A DNA stretch of 7,405 nt from a virus (lineage: Duplodnaviria; Heunggongvirae; Uroviricota; Caudoviricetes), in IMG/VR virus record IMGVR_UViG_2734482598_000002; one strand, written 5' to 3'. The notes under the pieces were generated by a model. The model was not told the origin of the DNA. It worked only from the letters and a program-made list of their open reading frames with translations, and ran no database searches. Of the stretch, positions 1 to 7,405 are shown in pieces (position 1 is the first letter of the stretch; each line of letters opens with the position of its first letter). A program made the position numbers and the translations under genes.

Positions 1-66
1 GAGAACCTTAAGGAAACAACATGTTGGGTGGAGCGGACAATCCAAATGGCGAATTACCGTCTTATA

Positions 67-393
67 TCACTGGCGCTGACACTTCATCACCTCCGGACGT
101 AAATCACCATCCTTTGGTGCATTCAGAAACGCGTTCAGTGTCCCCGGTGCATCAGTCGGTGCCACATCAATATCCCCGACACGGGTTGGCTGCCAGCCGT
201 TACAGTGAAGCGCAACCTCGTAATACCCCGGCTCAGCCTCAATCACATAAGCACCGTTATTGTCCGTCACGCAAGTGGCAACAACGTGTGCCACAACGGT
301 CGGACTGGTTCTTCTGGCCCGCAGTTCAATCGCACAATTTACGACAGGTTTACCCGCCCCATCTTTCAGTACACCTGAAATCTTTACTGCCAT
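67..393 (-). CDS. stf: Side tail fibre protein, N-terminal domain only (truncated Stf-like ORF, about 108 aa)
   Basis: Minus-strand ORF whose product from the internal Met (MAVKISGVLKDGAGKPV...) matches the N-terminus of lambda Stf as I recall it (MAVKISGVLKDGTGKPVQNC...). ATG at 393-391 preferred over the track's ATG at 435 because a terminator hairpin lies at 405-429 and homology begins at 393. The ORF stops at 69-67 (TGA) right after a conserved RPEV motif, where a full-length Stf would continue for several hundred residues. Confidence 0.6.
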   Translation of the reverse strand: MAVKISGVLKDGAGKPVVNCAIELRARRTSPTVVAHVVATCVTDNNGAYVIEAEPGYYEVALHCNGWQPTRVGDIDVAPTDAPGTLNAFLNAPKDGDLRPEVMKCQRQ

Positions 394-404
394 ATTCACC
401 CCAC

Positions 405-429
405 AAAAAGCCCGCCTGAACCAGCGGGC
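405..429 (-). terminator. Rho-independent terminator downstream of lom
   Basis: Minus-strand sequence GCCCGC-TGGTTCAG-GCGGGC followed by TTTTTGTGG: 6-bp GC-rich stem (plus 410-415 pairing with 424-429), 8-nt loop, T-tract at plus 405-409. Lies between the lom stop (459-457) and the stf start (393). Confidence 0.6.
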
Positions 430-456
430 AGTCATAACACTGTGTTACCTGGCTAA

Positions 457-1092
457 TCAGAACTTATAACCGACACCCACGATGAAACCGTCAGTGCGCC
501 AGTCACCACTGCCGGAACCTTCATAAGCAAGGTCAATGGCCACGGATTCGGTCGGGTTAAACTGCACGCCAGCCCCCCACGCCAGAGACGTGTTGCTGTG
601 GCGACCGTCATCACTTCCGGTCAGCACATCGTGCGTTTTCCCCTTGTTGNNNNNNNNNNNNNNNNNNNNNNNNNNNNNNNNNNNNNNNNNNNNNNNNNNN
701 NNNNNNNNNNNNNAGGTCGACACACGGCTGTAAGCCACGCCCGCCATCGCATACGCGCTGAACCATTCATTCACGCGCACAGACGGCCCCGCCATCACGC
801 TGAACCAGCGGTTACGCACGGAATCCTCATGCCAGCGGGTATCGCTGTAACGGGTCAGCTGGCGATTCTTGTCTCCTGCATAGCTGAATGACGTCACCAG
901 CCCCAGCGTATCCGTAAACTCATAACGGTATTTCACGTTAATGCCCTTCAGGTCATCGCTGCCTGGCATATCAGTATGGGTCTGAAGATACCCGGCGCTC
1001 AGCGTGGACTGATGTTCAGACGCCCATGCAGGCGCACCGGATACGGCCAGACAGATGGCTGCGGACAAAATGGCTGCACAAACTTTACGCAT
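457..1092 (-). CDS. lom: Lom outer-membrane protein (Ail/Lom/PagC family beta-barrel), 211 aa, interrupted by a 64-nt N run
   Basis: N-terminal signal peptide MRKVCAAILSAAICLAVSGAPAWA with an AxA cleavage motif; C-terminus ...AYEGSGSGDWRTDGFIVGVGYKF with terminal Phe typical of OMP barrels and matching lambda Lom as I recall it; conserved KGINVKYRYE block; SD GAGAGGT 5 nt upstream of the ATG at 1092; position immediately after J as in lambda. Frame is maintained across the N run at 650-713. Confidence 0.9.
   Translation of the reverse strand: MRKVCAAILSAAICLAVSGAPAWASEHQSTLSAGYLQTHTDMPGSDDLKGINVKYRYEFTDTLGLVTSFSYAGDKNRQLTRYSDTRWHEDSVRNRWFSVMAGPSVRVNEWFSAYAMAGVAYSRVSTXXXXXXXXXXXXXXXXXXXXXXNKGKTHDVLTGSDDGRHSNTSLAWGAGVQFNPTESVAIDLAYEGSGSGDWRTDGFIVGVGYKF
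650..713. other. Run of 64 undetermined bases (N), masked or assembly gap inside lom
   Basis: Directly visible in the sequence; the lom reading frame is the same on both sides of the run. Confidence 0.99.
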
Positions 1093-1113
1093 AATTACCT
1101 CTCGCTTTTCTGC

Positions 1114-1140
1114 AATAAAAAAGGCACCATTTCTGGTGCC
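1114..1140 (-). terminator. Rho-independent terminator between J and lom
   Basis: Minus-strand sequence GGCACCA-GAAA-TGGTGCC (7-bp perfect stem, 4-nt loop; plus 1123-1140) followed immediately by TTTTTTATT (plus 1114-1122). Located 20 nt after the J stop and upstream of the lom RBS. Confidence 0.7.
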
Positions 1141-1159
1141 CGTATCTGGGTTATAAAAT

Positions 1160-4100
1160 TCAGCTAATCGTGATGCCTGCAGTGGCTTTCTTCATCACCA
1201 CAACCAGCAAATCGCTGATACTTGCTGTGGGATACCAGCCATTTACCAGCCATGCCGATACAGAAAACTCCAGCGTCATGTGACCGTGACCGGCAGGCAT
1301 ATCAATAACACCCGTATATATCAGCGTATTATCCAGGGTCGTTCGGTTATAAATTTCAGCACCGTTTTTCTTCACTATCAGGCGGCATGACGAATAAATA
1401 TTGTTATTCTTCCGCTCATGTTTAGCACCGCGAAACGCCACCGCGGGAATAACAATTTGCCGATCAAACGGCTGATCGTCATAAACCCTGACGGTAATGG
1501 TCCCTGATGGCCACCTCTCCGGTGCCCGGGAGTCCCGTGGGAAAGGTTTGCCCACTGTTTTAACGAGATCGCCTTCAATCTGGTTCGCGGACAATTTTCC
1601 CAGAACCCGACAGTTCTTATTAATCGTGACGTTGTTGAGCGTCCCGGAGTTCGCGTTCACGTTACCGCTGATATCGGCATTTTTCGCCGTCAGCCGTCCG
1701 CCAGGTGTCAGGGAAAATGCCGGAGGATTACCGCCGCTGGTAATGGTCGGAGCCGTCAGGCATTTCAGGAACACGTCGTTCATGAATATCTGATCGCCCT
1801 GACCAACAAACATCGGCTTTGTGTTGCCATTCGCAGGATTAATCATCGCAATCCTGTCTGCCGCCAGCAGCACCTGACTCTGCATTCCTGCTGGCGTATT
1901 CTCAATACCGGCACCGATACCCGCAATATAAAGGCGTCCGTCCTTCATCTGTTGCAGCTTCACAGCCCACATGCTGTTCAGGTTATTATTTGTATCAACC
2001 TGAACTTTCTGTATCTGCTGGATTGCAGCACTCTGATTTTCCAGTTTTTTATTGACGGTTTGCGTGATTTCATTGCTGACATTCGTAATGGACGTCCTGA
2101 TTTCAGTCAGGTCCGGCGCAAGCTGACCGTTATCAATCTGCGTCCACAACTCCTTGCCGAGATGCGTTTTATTGATCAACCCTTTATAAAAATTCAGATA
2201 ACCTTCTGCATCATCGCTCGCCCGACCGATGGCCTCCACAAATGCCGATTTGCCAACGGTGTTCACACTGCGAACGTAAAAATAATAATCATGGCCCGGC
2301 CTGATATTGATACTGGCGGCTATCCAGTACAGCGCCGTGCCAAGATAGCGGGCGCTGGTTTCAACCTGCCTGATATCCGCAATCCGCTTTTCCGAAAACC
2401 AGAACTCAAACTGCACCGTCGGGTCATATACAGCCAGTTTCGGGACCGCCGTTATCTGAAAATACCCCGGTATCAGTTCAATAGTGACAGGCGCTGCCGG
2501 TGCCGCAATCCGGAACGATACCGACGCCGGATCGCCCTGCTGCCCCCGGGCATTTACCGCCCGGACTGTCAGACTGTAATTCCCCAGCGCCAGCTGCCTG
2601 AAGCGGTATGTGGTTTCCGTCGTCCTGGCTGTGCTGACCAGCCGCTCACTGCCGTCGTCCGCTGCCACGGTCAGGCGAAGCAGGAAGCTCACACCCTTCA
2701 CCACCTTCGGCGTGTCCCATCGCGCCAGCACCTGATATTCCCCGCTGTCTGCGGTGACTTCGGCGGTCAGATGCTGCACCGCTGGCGGCGTGACACCATT
2801 CACCGTGCCGCGCCGGTCACCGTCAAAGTGTGCCCCGTTATCCACGATGGCCTCTTTTTCCGGCACATGCTGCACGGCGGTGATGGCATACGTGCCGTCG
2901 TCGTTCTCACGGATACTCACGCAGCGGAACAGACGCTGGCGCAGCGTCGGCAGCTTCAGCCCCCACACGCTGTATTCTGCAACGCCGTCAGGAACCCGGC
3001 TCACTTTCACCTTCACGCCGTCGGTGACGGACTGGACCTCCACGCTGACCGGATTGCCACTTCCGTCAACCAGGCTTATCAGCGTGGTACCGGAGGACGG
3101 CAGCGTGATTTCACGGTCGAGCGTCAGCGTCCGGGTCTGGCTGTTCACCGCCAGTACGCGACCACCGGTGCTGATACCGGCATAATCATCATCGCAGATT
3201 TCAATGACATCACCCGGTACATGGCGAAGCCCTTCTGCGCCCACGCTGAAGTCCACGGTCTGCGTTTCCAGCAGTTCCGTTTTAATCAGCCACAGCCCGG
3301 CTCGGTGTGCCTGCCCCCGGCTGGTACAGCCAAAGGCATCCATCTTCGTGACATTACGACCGTAACGGGCAATGGCCTGCGTATCCTCCACAAGCTCTGT
3401 CGCCGTCTCCCAGCCGTTATCTGGGTCAATCCAGTTCACCTCAACGGCATTATGGCGGTCCTTCAGGGCGCTGAAGCTGTAGCGGAACGGCGCGCCATCG
3501 TCCGGCATCACCACATTACTGCGGTTATAGGTCCACACCTTATCCGACGGTCGGTCCTGCACGAACGTCAGCATCTGTCCGTTCCATACCGGCATACAGC
3601 GCATCGCCGAGCAGAAATCACTGAGAACATCCCACGCCTTACGCTGTGTGGTCAGGTAAGAGTTACAGGTGATGCGCGGCTCCGTGCCGCCAAATCCGTC
3701 CGTCACTGACTGGTCGCAGTACTGGCCGATGACATACAGCGCCCATTTGTCCACATCTGCCGCACCAAGACGTTTCCCCATGCCGTAGCGCGGATGAGTG
3801 AGCATGTCCCACAGACACCAGGCCATGTTGTTGCTGTATGCTGGCTTAAGCGTTCCGTCCCAGATACCGCTGTATTGCCGCGTCTGCGGGTTATAGTTCG
3901 ACGGCACCTGCAGAATGCGCCCGCGAAGATGATAATTGCGACTCACCTGCTGGTTACCGAACTGCTCTGAATCCACCTGCACGCCGACCAGCGCCGTGTT
4001 CGGGTAGCACTGTTTCACATCGATGATTTCGGTGTACGACGACCAGAGCGTTTTGTTCTGCAGCTGGTCTGTGGTGCTGTCCGGTGTCATCCTGCGCATC

Positions 4101-4639
4101 CGGATATTAAACGGGCGCGGCGGCAGGTTACCCACCACCACCGAGGCCAGATACTGCGAAGTGGTTTTGCCCTTAATGGTGATGTCTTTTTCCGTCACCC
4201 AGCCACCGTTACGCTGTATCTGAACCAGCAGGCGGACTTCCGACGGATTCCGGTCACCCTTTGAGGTGGTTTCCACCAGTGCCTGCACACCGAAGGTCAG
4301 GCGCAGACGGTCGATGTTTGCCGACGTGATGGTCCGGGTGATCGGCGTGTCATATTTCACTTCCGTACCCAGCACCGTCTCGGAGCCGGAGGATTCAAAA
4401 CCCTCCGGCGGTGTCTGCTCCTGCTCACCTGCACGGAACACCACCGTAACACCGGAAAAGTTTGTCTTCCCCTCGCTGTCCAGGACCGGCGTACCGTTCA
4501 GCAGCACGCTTTTTAATCCATCCACCGGACCGTCAACCGGCCCTTCGCTGATGGCATCAATCACACTCAGCAACTGCGTGGATTTCAGGTTGTCCTTCGC
4601 TTCGCGCGGGGTATGCCCCTTACTGCTGCCTTTACCCAT
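1160..4639 (-). CDS. J: Tail tip / central tail fibre host-specificity protein J, 1159 aa
   Basis: Single long minus-strand ORF. N-terminus [34 protein letters not shown]... and most of the first 800 residues are near-colinear with lambda J as I recall it. SD GAGGA immediately upstream of the ATG at 4639; stop TGA at 1162-1160. Size and position (after I, before lom) match lambda gene order. Confidence 0.95.
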
Positions 4640-4660
4640 TCCTCACGCTCCATAAACGAC

Positions 4661-4681
4661 AAAACCGCCCGCAGGCGGTTT
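4661..4681 (-). promoter_or_regulatory. Conserved I-J intergenic stem-loop (possible attenuator or RNA processing/stability element)
   Basis: Minus-strand AAACCGCC-TGCG-GGCGGTTT (8-bp stem, 4-nt loop) followed by TGTCGTTTATGGAGCGTGAGGAATG, i.e. the hairpin sits 20 nt upstream of the J SD/ATG in the 60-nt I-J spacer. I recall essentially the same element at this position in lambda. Confidence 0.4.
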
Positions 4682-4699
4682 CACATAAAACATTTTGCA

Positions 4700-5341
4700 T
4701 CAGCGACCAATCACCACAACCTGACCACCATCCCCTTCGTCTGCCGTGCTGATCTCCTGAGAAACCACACGTGACCCCACGCGCATTTCACCGTACAGAA
4801 CGGGCAGAACATTGCCCTGGGCAACCATGTTATCCAGTGACGAGAAATACGTGTTCTGCTTACCGTTATCCGTTGTCTGTGTACGGGGAGTTCTGGCTTT
4901 CGGTGCCAGCATCTGTGCAACACCGCCAAGCGTCATACTGGCACCGAGAGAAAACAGCAGATTACTCGCCATAATTCCTACCCCCGGCATCCATATAGCA
5001 ACCGCCATAACAGCCGCCCCCAGCACCGCCTGAAACACACCGCCACTTTTAGCTCCCACCAGACGCGGTACTATGTGGATCACTGCACCATTTGCCAGCG
5101 GCTCATTAAGACGGGCAGACAATTCGGTTTCACCTGCATCACGCCCGGCAATGCGCACCTGATACCAGCCGTCACTCAGTTTCTGACGAAACGCCGGGAG
5201 CTGTGTGGCCAGTGCCCGGATGGCTTCAGCCCCCGTTTTCACACGAAGGTCGATGCGGCGACCAAATCGTTGTAAATCCCCGTAAAGGCAGATGCGCGCC
5301 ATGCCCGGTGACGCCAGAGGGAGTGTGTGCGTCGCTGCCAT
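4700..5341 (-). CDS. I: Tail tip assembly protein I, 213 aa
   Basis: Minus-strand ORF. N-terminus MAATHTLPLASPGMARICLYGDLQRFGRRIDLRVKTGAEAIRALATQLPAFRQKLSDGWYQVRIAGRD and C-terminus ...KARTPRTQTTDNGKQNTYFSSLDNMVAQGNVLPVLYGEMRVGSRVVSQEISTADEGDGGQVVVIGR match lambda gpI as I recall it; the middle hydrophobic segment differs. Start could alternatively be the internal ATG at 5302. Stop TGA at 4702-4700. Confidence 0.9.
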   Translation of the reverse strand: MAATHTLPLASPGMARICLYGDLQRFGRRIDLRVKTGAEAIRALATQLPAFRQKLSDGWYQVRIAGRDAGETELSARLNEPLANGAVIHIVPRLVGAKSGGVFQAVLGAAVMAVAIWMPGVGIMASNLLFSLGASMTLGGVAQMLAPKARTPRTQTTDNGKQNTYFSSLDNMVAQGNVLPVLYGEMRVGSRVVSQEISTADEGDGGQVVVIGR

Positions 5342-5948
5342 TTGTCGGTGTACCTCTCTCGTTTGCTCAGTTGTTCAGGAATATGGTGCAGCAGCCCGCC
5401 GTCACCGCAGTAAATGGCGGCATGATTCGGCACCGATGAACCAAAACAGCACAGCAGCACATCGCCCGGCTGTGCCTCTGTCAGTGCGACACGGTAAAAA
5501 CCCGTCACCTCCATATTGTCAAGATAGAGATTCTGACCGTTACGCCACCAGTCATCCCCGCGATGAAAATCCGGCATCTCAATCCCTGCCAGATGATAAG
5601 CATCCCGGAACAGCGTGTAACAGTCCGTCACCCCGTGCTCAAAGCNNNNNNNNNNNNNNNNNNNNNNNNNNNNNNNNNNNNNNNNNNNNNNNNNNNNNNN
5701 NNNNNNNNNNNNNNNNNNNNNNNNNNNNNNNNNNNNNNNNNNNNNNNNNNNNNNNNNNNNNNNNNNNNNNNNNNNNNNNNNNNNNNNNNNNNNNNNNNNN
5801 NNNNNNNNNNNNNNNNNNNNNNNNNNNNNNNNNNNNNNNNNNNNNNNNNNNNNNNNNNTCCCTCCGGCGTTCTTACCACGAAGCCACACGACTCCGCTGG
5901 CGCACATCGCCGGGCGTGCGCCAGAATCGCTGATTCTGTCTGTGTCAT
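5239..5948 (-). CDS. K: Tail tip assembly protein K (JAB/MPN N-terminal motif plus NlpC/P60-like C-terminal domain); frame discontinuity across a 213-nt N run
   Basis: ATG at 5948-5946, 4 nt after the L stop, encodes MTQTESAILAHARRCAPAESCGFVVRTPEG, a JAB/MPN-like start typical of lambda K. After the N run a different frame encodes ...DCYTLFRDAYHLAGIEMPDF...SSVPNHAAIYCGDGGLLHH..., with Cys/His/His spacing typical of NlpC/P60 peptidases, ending at TGA 5241-5239. The two halves are in different frames (5948 and 5907 differ by 41 nt), so the gene is either frameshifted inside the masked region or the N run has an inexact length. Confidence 0.7.
5646..5858. other. Run of 213 undetermined bases (N), masked or assembly gap inside K
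   Basis: Directly visible in the sequence. Confidence 0.99.
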
Positions 5949-5952
5949 GGAT

Positions 5953-6651
5953 TTACTGAGAAAGTTTATTGATGGAAAGGAAACCGCCGAAATTACCGGT
6001 ATTGTTGCGCAACTCACACCCGCGCATACACTTGCTGCATTTGTCCTTCCGGATATCCGTCGTTGGTTTGTCGAACTCGTCAGCCACTGCCCTGCCCGTG
6101 TAACCACACTCATCAGAACGGTAAGTCCACATACAGGTATTCGCCAGCATGATACGCCCCGGGAAAACCGCGCCATCCGTCTCCGTTGGTGTGGCCAGCA
6201 CAAAAGAGGCACTGACCGCGCTCAGTTCGCTGCACTGCTCGATGCGCCAGCGGCTGATCACCTCCTGTTCCGGATCGGCGTCGCTGTTTCCGTTGACGAA
6301 GTTCACCGCATCCAGAAAACGGGCGTAAACCTTACGCCTGACCACCGTTCCGCCGACCAGACTCTGCAGGTCTTCCGCCATCCCCGTGACCATGCCGTGC
6401 AGGTTAGAAACCGTCAGTGTCGGACGGGCAGCACTGCCCTTGCCGTTCAGTTCAAATCCCGTCCCCTGAATGGGGTATGCCTGATACTGCCGCCCCTGCC
6501 AGGTAACCGGCTCACCTTTTTCGTTCTGCTCATTACAGAAAAAATAACGTTCACCACCGACCTCTGTCAGATCGATTTCCCAGAGCACCACCTGGGCTGA
6601 CTGAGTGAGGCGTGTCGTCTCATGATGTGTTTCCTGTGGAATATCCTGCAT
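5953..6651 (-). CDS. L: Minor tail protein L (tail tip complex; Cys-rich C-terminus consistent with an Fe-S cluster site), 232 aa
   Basis: Minus-strand ORF of 232 aa, the same length as lambda gpL, immediately after M. SD GAGG in the 9-nt M-L spacer. C-terminal cysteines (...CMWTYRSDECGYTG...CSKCMRGCE...) fit the reported iron-sulfur cluster of gpL. Confidence 0.9.
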   Translation of the reverse strand: MQDIPQETHHETTRLTQSAQVVLWEIDLTEVGGERYFFCNEQNEKGEPVTWQGRQYQAYPIQGTGFELNGKGSAARPTLTVSNLHGMVTGMAEDLQSLVGGTVVRRKVYARFLDAVNFVNGNSDADPEQEVISRWRIEQCSELSAVSASFVLATPTETDGAVFPGRIMLANTCMWTYRSDECGYTGRAVADEFDKPTTDIRKDKCSKCMRGCELRNNTGNFGGFLSINKLSQ

Positions 6652-6660
6652 CAGAGCCTC

Positions 6661-6990
6661 CTATGCCACGACCTGTTCAAAATCTGCCGTTATGGTTACC
6701 CACAACGCCCCCACGCTTGCCGACCATTTACGACAAACCACCCTGATCGGCTTCCAGTCATAAGGTGGCGTCCACTGAAATGCGCGGACGCCACCGTGCC
6801 GTTCCAGAAAGGCTTTTAAAGATGGGTGTTCACATTTACGAACACGTATCGTCACGCTGTAAGTCGACAACTGGTTATTCAGTCCCGCCGCACGACGCTG
6901 TTCATAACCATCGCCCAGCTTCACTGTCACCACTTTCGGCTCTGATACCACATTCATATCCGGGCGCACTTTCCAGTGAAACGTCTCCAT
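6661..6990 (-). CDS. M: Minor tail protein M, 109 aa
   Basis: 109-aa minus-strand ORF, METFHWKVRPDMNVVSEPKVV...FLERHGGVRAFQWTPPYDWKPIRVVCRKWSA...FEQVVA, same length and similar to lambda gpM as I recall it (MKTFRWKVKPGMDV...EFEQVVN). Its ATG overlaps the upstream stop by 1 nt (TAATG). Confidence 0.9.
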   Translation of the reverse strand: METFHWKVRPDMNVVSEPKVVTVKLGDGYEQRRAAGLNNQLSTYSVTIRVRKCEHPSLKAFLERHGGVRAFQWTPPYDWKPIRVVCRKWSASVGALWVTITADFEQVVA

Positions 6991-7405
6991 TACCGGTATG
7001 CTCCACTTAACCGGCCACCATCACGGGCCTGCTGTTGCATAAAGTCCGCGGCCGCTTTTTTCCCGAGGTCATAAACCACCTTCAGGGCAGCCGGACCTAT
7101 CTGCCCGTTCGTGCCATCGTTATTGATCTCAATGTTGTACTGCGGGGCAAACATCACCATGCCTGAACCACCAGTATCCGCCACACCCCCCAGCTTACCA
7201 TCAGCACCGCGACGCAGTGGCAGAATGGCTTCAGGTCCCGCTTCCCCCATCACACCCGCGCCTTTTGCAAAAGCAAAAAACGTCGGACGGTTAACCACCG
7301 TGCCACTGTAGCGACTCAAATCAGCAGACTGAGGTAGCCTGAGTTTAACGGACACTCCTTCCTGAAATAGAATGGCATCAGAAGGAGCTAATAATGAGCA
7401 GAAAA
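6990..7405 (-). CDS. H: Tail tape-measure protein H, C-terminal fragment (partial; 5' end lies beyond the right edge)
   Basis: Minus-strand frame is open from the window edge (7405) to TAA at 6992-6990 with no in-frame stop between 7356 and 7405, so the track's start at 7355 (a GTG) is not the true start. Gly/Ala-rich C-terminal sequence and position immediately upstream of M match the lambda H-M junction. Confidence 0.75.
   Translation of the reverse strand, partial: FCSLLAPSDAILFQEGVSVKLRLPQSADLSRYSGTVVNRPTFFAFAKGAGVMGEAGPEAILPLRRGADGKLGGVADTGGSGMVMFAPQYNIEINNDGTNGQIGPAALKVVYDLGKKAAADFMQQQARDGGRLSGAYR

Follow-up and report, generated by a model that had tools for sequence, protein, structure and literature searches.

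The side tail fibre gene of a lambda-like prophage remnant ends in the left terminus of IS21

IS21, the prototype of the IS21 family, is an insertion sequence of about 2.13 kb that encodes a transposase/cointegrase, IstA, and an AAA+ helper, IstB. In phage lambda, the side tail fibre gene (stf) lies after J and lom, and in the laboratory phage it is inactive as well: the record of lambda PaPa holds it as two ORFs (orf-401 and orf-314), the result of a frameshift that Hendrix and Duda are said to have described in 1992. In the fibre inversion systems of Mu, P1 and e14 (the Gin/Hin/Pin/Cin systems), the tail-fibre gene has a constant N-terminal part that ends abruptly. Prophages and genes of Shigella decay through the expansion of insertion sequences (IS1, IS2, IS4, IS600 and IS911); IS21 is a minor element in S. 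sonnei, and for strain 53G it appears in a list of twelve IS types (PMC7373316). Members of the IS21 family are described as having a terminal CA and terminal inverted repeats made up of multiple repeats (PMC10122671).

The DNA analysed here (“the window”) is the whole 7,405-nt stretch of a Caudoviricetes sequence, IMG/VR record IMGVR_UViG_2734482598_000002, and the locus under study lies at its left edge. It resembles lambda stf in its position directly after J and lom, in an N-terminal region that is 51% identical to lambda orf-401 through the RPEV motif, and in its match to PF08400. Unlike laboratory lambda stf, it is interrupted by an IS after codon 104 and not by a frameshift; the intact 470-aa relative in EIEC differs from lambda Stf in both shaft and tip. 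The likeness to IS21 consists of an identical 81-nt end, a terminal CA at the junction, a terminal inverted repeat resembling the right end of the element and, in the S. sonnei FORC_011 chromosome, the N-terminal part of istA as the next sequence, although the window, unlike a full IS21, holds only the terminal 81 nt. With IS21 and IS600 at its two edges and nested insertion sequences in FORC_011, the region matches the pattern of IS-driven decay in Shigella (PMC7373316). All that it has in common with the Gin/Hin/Pin/Cin systems is the abrupt end of the constant N-terminal part of a tail-fibre gene; unlike them, it shows crossover-site similarity at background level only, and it lacks both an invertase gene and alternative tips.

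The leftmost sequence, in which the first-pass annotation saw no resemblance to the lambda stf continuation, is the left end of IS21. The reverse complement of positions 1–81 is identical at 81 of 81 nt to IS21 nt 1–81 in the copy on pPK8217-MCR1 (L003 952–3081, 2130 bp), the two ends of which start TGTCAGCGCCAG... and TGTCAACGCCAC.... Full copies sharing the window's end are 2130 bp long, carry istA (390 aa) and istB, and have TGTCAACGCCACG... as their right end, giving terminal repeats of the form TGTCA(G/A)CGCCA. Target duplications of 4 bp, GCAT and TTCT, surround the two full copies examined. Among 5426 complete E. coli genomes, 2698 contain matches to window positions 1–90, at 4031 places in all (1504 chromosomal, 2527 plasmid); in annotated records the match lies directly upstream of istA (“IS21-like element IS21 family transposase”), with istB as the next gene. 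Membership in IS21 is supported both by the TG...CA terminal repeat at the boundary with the flank and by the multicopy, mobile spread across replicons. The istA start codon would lie 21 nt past the left edge of the window, and istA is co-oriented with stf.

When the window was aligned to two copies of IS21 and to the intact stf of EIEC ST99 CFSAN029787, the junction fell between positions 81 and 82. As far as ...GGCGCTGACA (position 81) the window equals IS21; from CTTCATCACC (position 82) onwards it equals stf, and the three IS21 copies, the window's included, part from one another exactly after ...GCTGACA. The breakpoint therefore lies two codons (MK) past RPEV, neither at RPEV itself nor at the stop codon. 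Earlier reading of the sequence had noted an abrupt loss of stf homology near the left edge; the loss is real, but its position is 81|82. The expected 4-bp target duplication at this junction would be CTTC (82–85, plus strand).

Megablast of positions 1–460 against the same 5426 genomes showed about 10 that match positions 82–460 at 97.4–99.7% identity, where the annotated features are “prophage tail fiber N-terminal domain-containing protein” and Ail/Lom, besides thousands of short matches, many of them on plasmids. None of the 5426 genomes covers the junction in this search. An exact-match scan of a species-representative genome collection with the 44-nt junction returned no matches, and megablast of 1–460 against phage records gave matches to 305–460 only (the region of lom and the start of stf), none of them across the junction. 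The lineage is accordingly assigned from FORC_011 and from draft contigs that share an accession series with the S. sonnei assemblies of Holt et al.

The truncated ORF (minus strand 393..67, MAVKISGVLKDG...DGDLRPEVMKCQRQ, MAVKISG...RPEVMKCQRQ) consists of 104 Stf codons followed by four codons and a stop supplied by IS21 (Table 1). Stf residues 1–104 are 100% identical to those of the intact 470-aa protein WP_046880233.1 of EIEC CFSAN029787. The ORF matches PF08400 (phage_tail_N, the prophage tail fibre N-terminal family) with E=1e-36 over profile positions 1–104 of 134, and it stops at Stf residue 104, inside this domain, and so falls short of a complete Stf. Since its last four codons derive from IS21 and the domain is cut at 104/134, the 108-aa ORF is not a conserved complete product; it is a pseudogene product. 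The first description of this ORF, with its RPEV motif, CQRQ end, stop at 69–67 and nearby palindrome at 6–13, was accurate in each respect, and its two main suspicions, that a genuine structural breakpoint cuts Stf after the N-terminal domain and that the 108-aa protein is no natural complete protein, are borne out by the domain match that ends at 104/134 and by the origin of the last codons.

The program-made ORF list starts the gene at ATG 435, giving a 122-aa ORF, but this extension overlaps a terminator-like hairpin at 429–410, so the true start of stf is ATG 393. In the record of phage mEp460, a “terminator” is annotated at the equivalent place between lom and stf. A second terminator-like hairpin with a T-run, at 1122–1141 on the minus strand between J and lom, mirrors the first. 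No sigma-70 promoter was found by a scan of window positions 1–1200, and Rfam and tRNA scans of the window gave nothing.

Table 1. Features of the window and, in order along the FORC_011 chromosome (locus L004, stf oriented forward), of the segments around the same junction.
Sequence	Feature	Position	Strand	Remarks
Window	IS21 left end (IS21 nt 81 to 1 on the + strand)	1..81	-	Terminal inverted repeat TGTCAGCGCCAGTG... and partial istA leader; 81/81 identity
Window	stf::IS21 fusion ORF	67..393	-	108 aa; exact protein in S. sonnei FORC_011 and 7 draft contigs
Window	IS21-derived TGA stop	69..67	-	IS21 nt 13-15
Window	IS21-derived codons 105-108 (CQRQ)	81..70	-	IS21 nt 1-12
Window	IS21/stf junction	81..82	.	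Terminal CA of IS21 (position 81, +) abuts stf codon 104
Window	Stf codons 1-104	393..82	-	End ...RPEVMK
Window	Terminator-like hairpin, GCCCGC-loop-GCGGGC then TTTTT	410..429	-	Between lom and stf, downstream of lom
Window	lom (Ail/Lom outer-membrane protein)	457..1092	-	Broken by N run 650-713
Window	gpJ central tail fibre / tip attachment protein	1160..4639	-	Intact, 1159 aa; seven Pfam J domains including the C-terminal receptor-binding domain
Window	Tail genes I, K, L, M and last 112 codons of tape-measure H	4700..7329	-	K broken by N run 5646-5858
Window	IS600, first 76 nt	7330..7405	+	TGAGGTAGCCTGAG...; orfA ATG 7394; cuts gene H short; right edge of the window
FORC_011, 1	stf	stf nt 1-312		
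FORC_011, 2	IS21	IS21 nt 1-438		
FORC_011, 3	Complete IS600			1264 bp; opposite orientation to the second IS600; 3-bp GTT duplication
FORC_011, 4	IS21 resumes	to about IS21 nt 1098		
FORC_011, 5	Truncated IS600			Without its first 87 nt
FORC_011, 6	stf	from stf nt 746		Open frame for the C-terminal 222 residues
FORC_011, 7	DUF4376 gene			tfa-like
FORC_011, 8	sitABCD-type transporter genes			ABC-3/ZnuA Pfam families

The exact fusion protein is encoded by the finished FORC_011 chromosome (CP010829.1), the organism being Shigella sonnei (PMC5447701), and by seven NCBI draft contigs, all seven of which end inside IS21. The junction is also present in six IMG/VR contigs, one of which continues through IS21 into the same IS600 insertion as in FORC_011; this makes 13 further contigs, although at least two of the IMG/VR ones equal an NCBI contig in length. 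Window and FORC_011 differ at 27 positions, only six of them outside a 60-nt patch in lom. This recurrence bears on the possibility that the junction is an assembly artefact, either a chimeric contig end joining stf to IS21 or a sequencing error that hides an intact stf. The window is clearly a draft scaffold, with N runs that are off in length and a lom patch of clustered differences, as such an artefact might lead one to expect. A chimera would nevertheless have to recur in the finished chromosome and in the 13 further contigs, and a random one would not be expected to join exactly at the terminal CA of IS21, which is what transposition predicts. An assembly chimera is thus effectively excluded, and with it the suggestion that an error conceals an intact gene.

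On the evidence of the junction, stf was almost certainly truncated by IS21 transposition after codon 104 of the stf gene of a lambda-like prophage. The finished chromosome shows what follows the same junction in FORC_011. Past the junction, FORC_011 has istA codons 1–109 (the HTH region), IS600 and more of istA; istB is deleted. This IS21 copy is dead, because IS600 splits it and because istB, the right end and the 3′ part of istA are gone. About 433 bp of stf are missing. The distal stf, followed by a tfa-like gene, comes 3.5 kb further on; it is disconnected from the proximal part but keeps the orientation and order of the intact gene. The fibre tip is therefore disconnected from the gene and not removed, contrary to the first interpretation that shaft and tip had been lost: 222 C-terminal codons and the tfa-like gene survive downstream.

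The same layout bears on a variant of this history, in which intramolecular transposition of a nearby IS21, with an adjacent deletion or inversion, put its left end at codon 104 and removed the distal fibre. In line with such a rearrangement, the target-site duplication cannot be shown, FORC_011 lacks the 3′ half of IS21 together with 433 bp of stf, and the predicted intact distal junction (stf...CTTC followed by the IS21 right end) had no match in the IMG/VR scan. On the other hand, the distal stf, from nt 746, still stands downstream in the orientation and order of the intact gene, and the deletion in FORC_011 ends in IS21 at about nt 1098 and in the 5′-truncated IS600 at nt 88, not at an IS21 terminus, so that the loss looks like a later, separate event. 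We consider this rearrangement improbable. Simple transposition as the founding event is what we infer from the single junction, because the second junction and the target duplication are absent from the window and deleted in FORC_011.

What lies across the breakpoint also decides the fate of a more elaborate proposal, that stf is joined here to a cargo gene (a moron or effector) or to an invertible tip segment with a Gin/Pin-type site at positions 1–20. The idea of cargo next to tail fibres is reasonable in general, given that in EIEC CFSAN029787 an ipaHe pseudogene and a methyltransferase gene come after the fibre genes; but it is unrelated to this breakpoint, where positions 1–81 are IS21 base for base. 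A cargo gene across the breakpoint was ruled out, IS21 and then IS600 being found there, and the ipaHe pseudogene, present in the EIEC relative only, lies beyond intact fibre and tfa-like genes. The palindrome CCTTAAGG at 6–13, which had been pointed out earlier, is an invariant piece of the IS21 leader, and perfect 8-nt palindromes are no commoner in the window than expected (22 observed versus about 28).

The resemblance of the first 20 nt to invertase crossover sites likewise dissolved on comparison. Against hixL, hixR and gixL, the best candidates in positions 1–60 scored 11–13 of 26, and other 60-nt stretches of the window gave means of 11.4–11.9 and maxima of 15–16 against the same sites, placing the similarity at background level. 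No gene within 10 kb on either side in FORC_011 (L004) carries a resolvase/invertase-family Pfam domain. FORC_011 has one distal stf remnant and one tfa-like DUF4376 gene, and hence no inverted alternative fibre C-termini. The search of the flank that had been recommended for an invertase, alternative C-termini or an effector at the breakpoint accordingly came back empty in FORC_011 (over 10 kb for the invertase). A cargo or invertase junction is, like the chimera, effectively excluded.

In FORC_011, the sequence directly beyond the tfa-like gene is a sitABCD-like metal ABC transporter operon (ABC-3 twice, ABC_tran and ZnuA; L004 15300–18749). At that place the homologous prophage of EIEC has instead the methyltransferase gene and the ipaHe pseudogene, followed by DinI and btsS.

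The transposition history favoured here would run as follows. IS21, by means of its DDE transposase IstA and the AAA+ helper IstB, would have inserted into stf with istA oriented as stf, and insertion catalysed by these proteins would be expected to have duplicated GAAG on the stf sense strand. Translation of stf now reads four codons of the IS21 terminal repeat before it meets the TGA, and the product is a 108-aa stub that ends within the N-terminal tail-attachment domain and lacks shaft and receptor-binding tip. In the lineage of FORC_011, IS600 would subsequently have hit IS21, and a later deletion would have taken the remainder of istA, istB and the right end of IS21, along with 433 bp of stf and the first 87 nt of a second IS600. 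Overall, the steps would amount to continued IS-driven decay of the region.

The prophage is a defective, IS-riddled remnant of a kind typical of Shigella sonnei, so that the disruption of stf is without consequence other than the continuing decay of a dead prophage. The stf stop codon and the istA start codon are 87 nt apart, and the two frames are co-oriented. It is conceivable, though very unlikely, that read-through from the late/tail operon across stf and istA expresses an IS21 transposase fragment, or that the 108-aa stub binds residual tails, with a regulatory or dominant-negative effect; the junction would then have some effect rather than being inert decay.

The locus is a textbook IS-insertion pseudogene in a Shigella-type prophage remnant, already known and present in public genomes. 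It matters mainly for annotation: the 66–81 nt at the left edge belong to an end of IS21, the 108-aa ORF represents a pseudogene, and both edges of the window look like assembly breaks induced by repeats. The identity of the sequence with IS21 also removes the grounds for seeking an effector locus or an invertible switch of the fibre here, and leaves one more case of the well-documented decay of prophages through insertion sequences in the Shigella/EIEC lineage.

The window has the look of a contig or scaffold assembled from short reads and broken at multicopy repeats, IS21 on the left and IS600 on the right, and such a break would explain why it ends 81 nt into IS21. Short-read assemblers typically yield contigs of this sort, flanked at either end by some 80 nt of a multicopy IS. 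The abrupt left end would thus be an assembly boundary on top of a real IS junction, and the genome from which the window comes presumably continues to the left as FORC_011 does. The two N runs disagree in length with FORC_011 (650–713, 64 versus 28 nt; 5646–5858, 213 versus 247 nt) and look like scaffold gaps of estimated size. Because of this mismatch, the 211-aa lom ORF and the broken K ORF are artefacts; the real lom product, as in the FORC_011 orthologue, has 199 aa (PF06316, E=4e-129). Near the right edge, the H remnant aligns to residues 788–850 of the 853 of lambda H, and a listed 121-aa ORF at 6990–7355 has its start inside IS600.

Several minor observations concern the neighbouring genes. 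A 585-aa ORF at 1952–3709 on the plus strand, antisense to gpJ and without independent support, is most likely a by-product of the codon composition of J. The lom patch at 851–910 (60 nt) contains 21 of the 27 differences from FORC_011, whereas the 4.7 kb at 911–5645 contain none, which suggests either that a paralogous lom of another lambdoid prophage was involved, by collapse or by gene conversion, or that the patch is a local misassembly. In FORC_011, the Q antiterminator region follows almost at once upstream of the IS600 in gene H, and the genes for head, terminase and lysis thus appear to have been deleted. Among the draft and IMG/VR contigs with the junction, L005–L008, L013, L014 and L016 carry duplicated or shuffled J segments with 85–95% identity, apparently because paralogous lambdoid prophages were wrongly joined when short reads were scaffolded.
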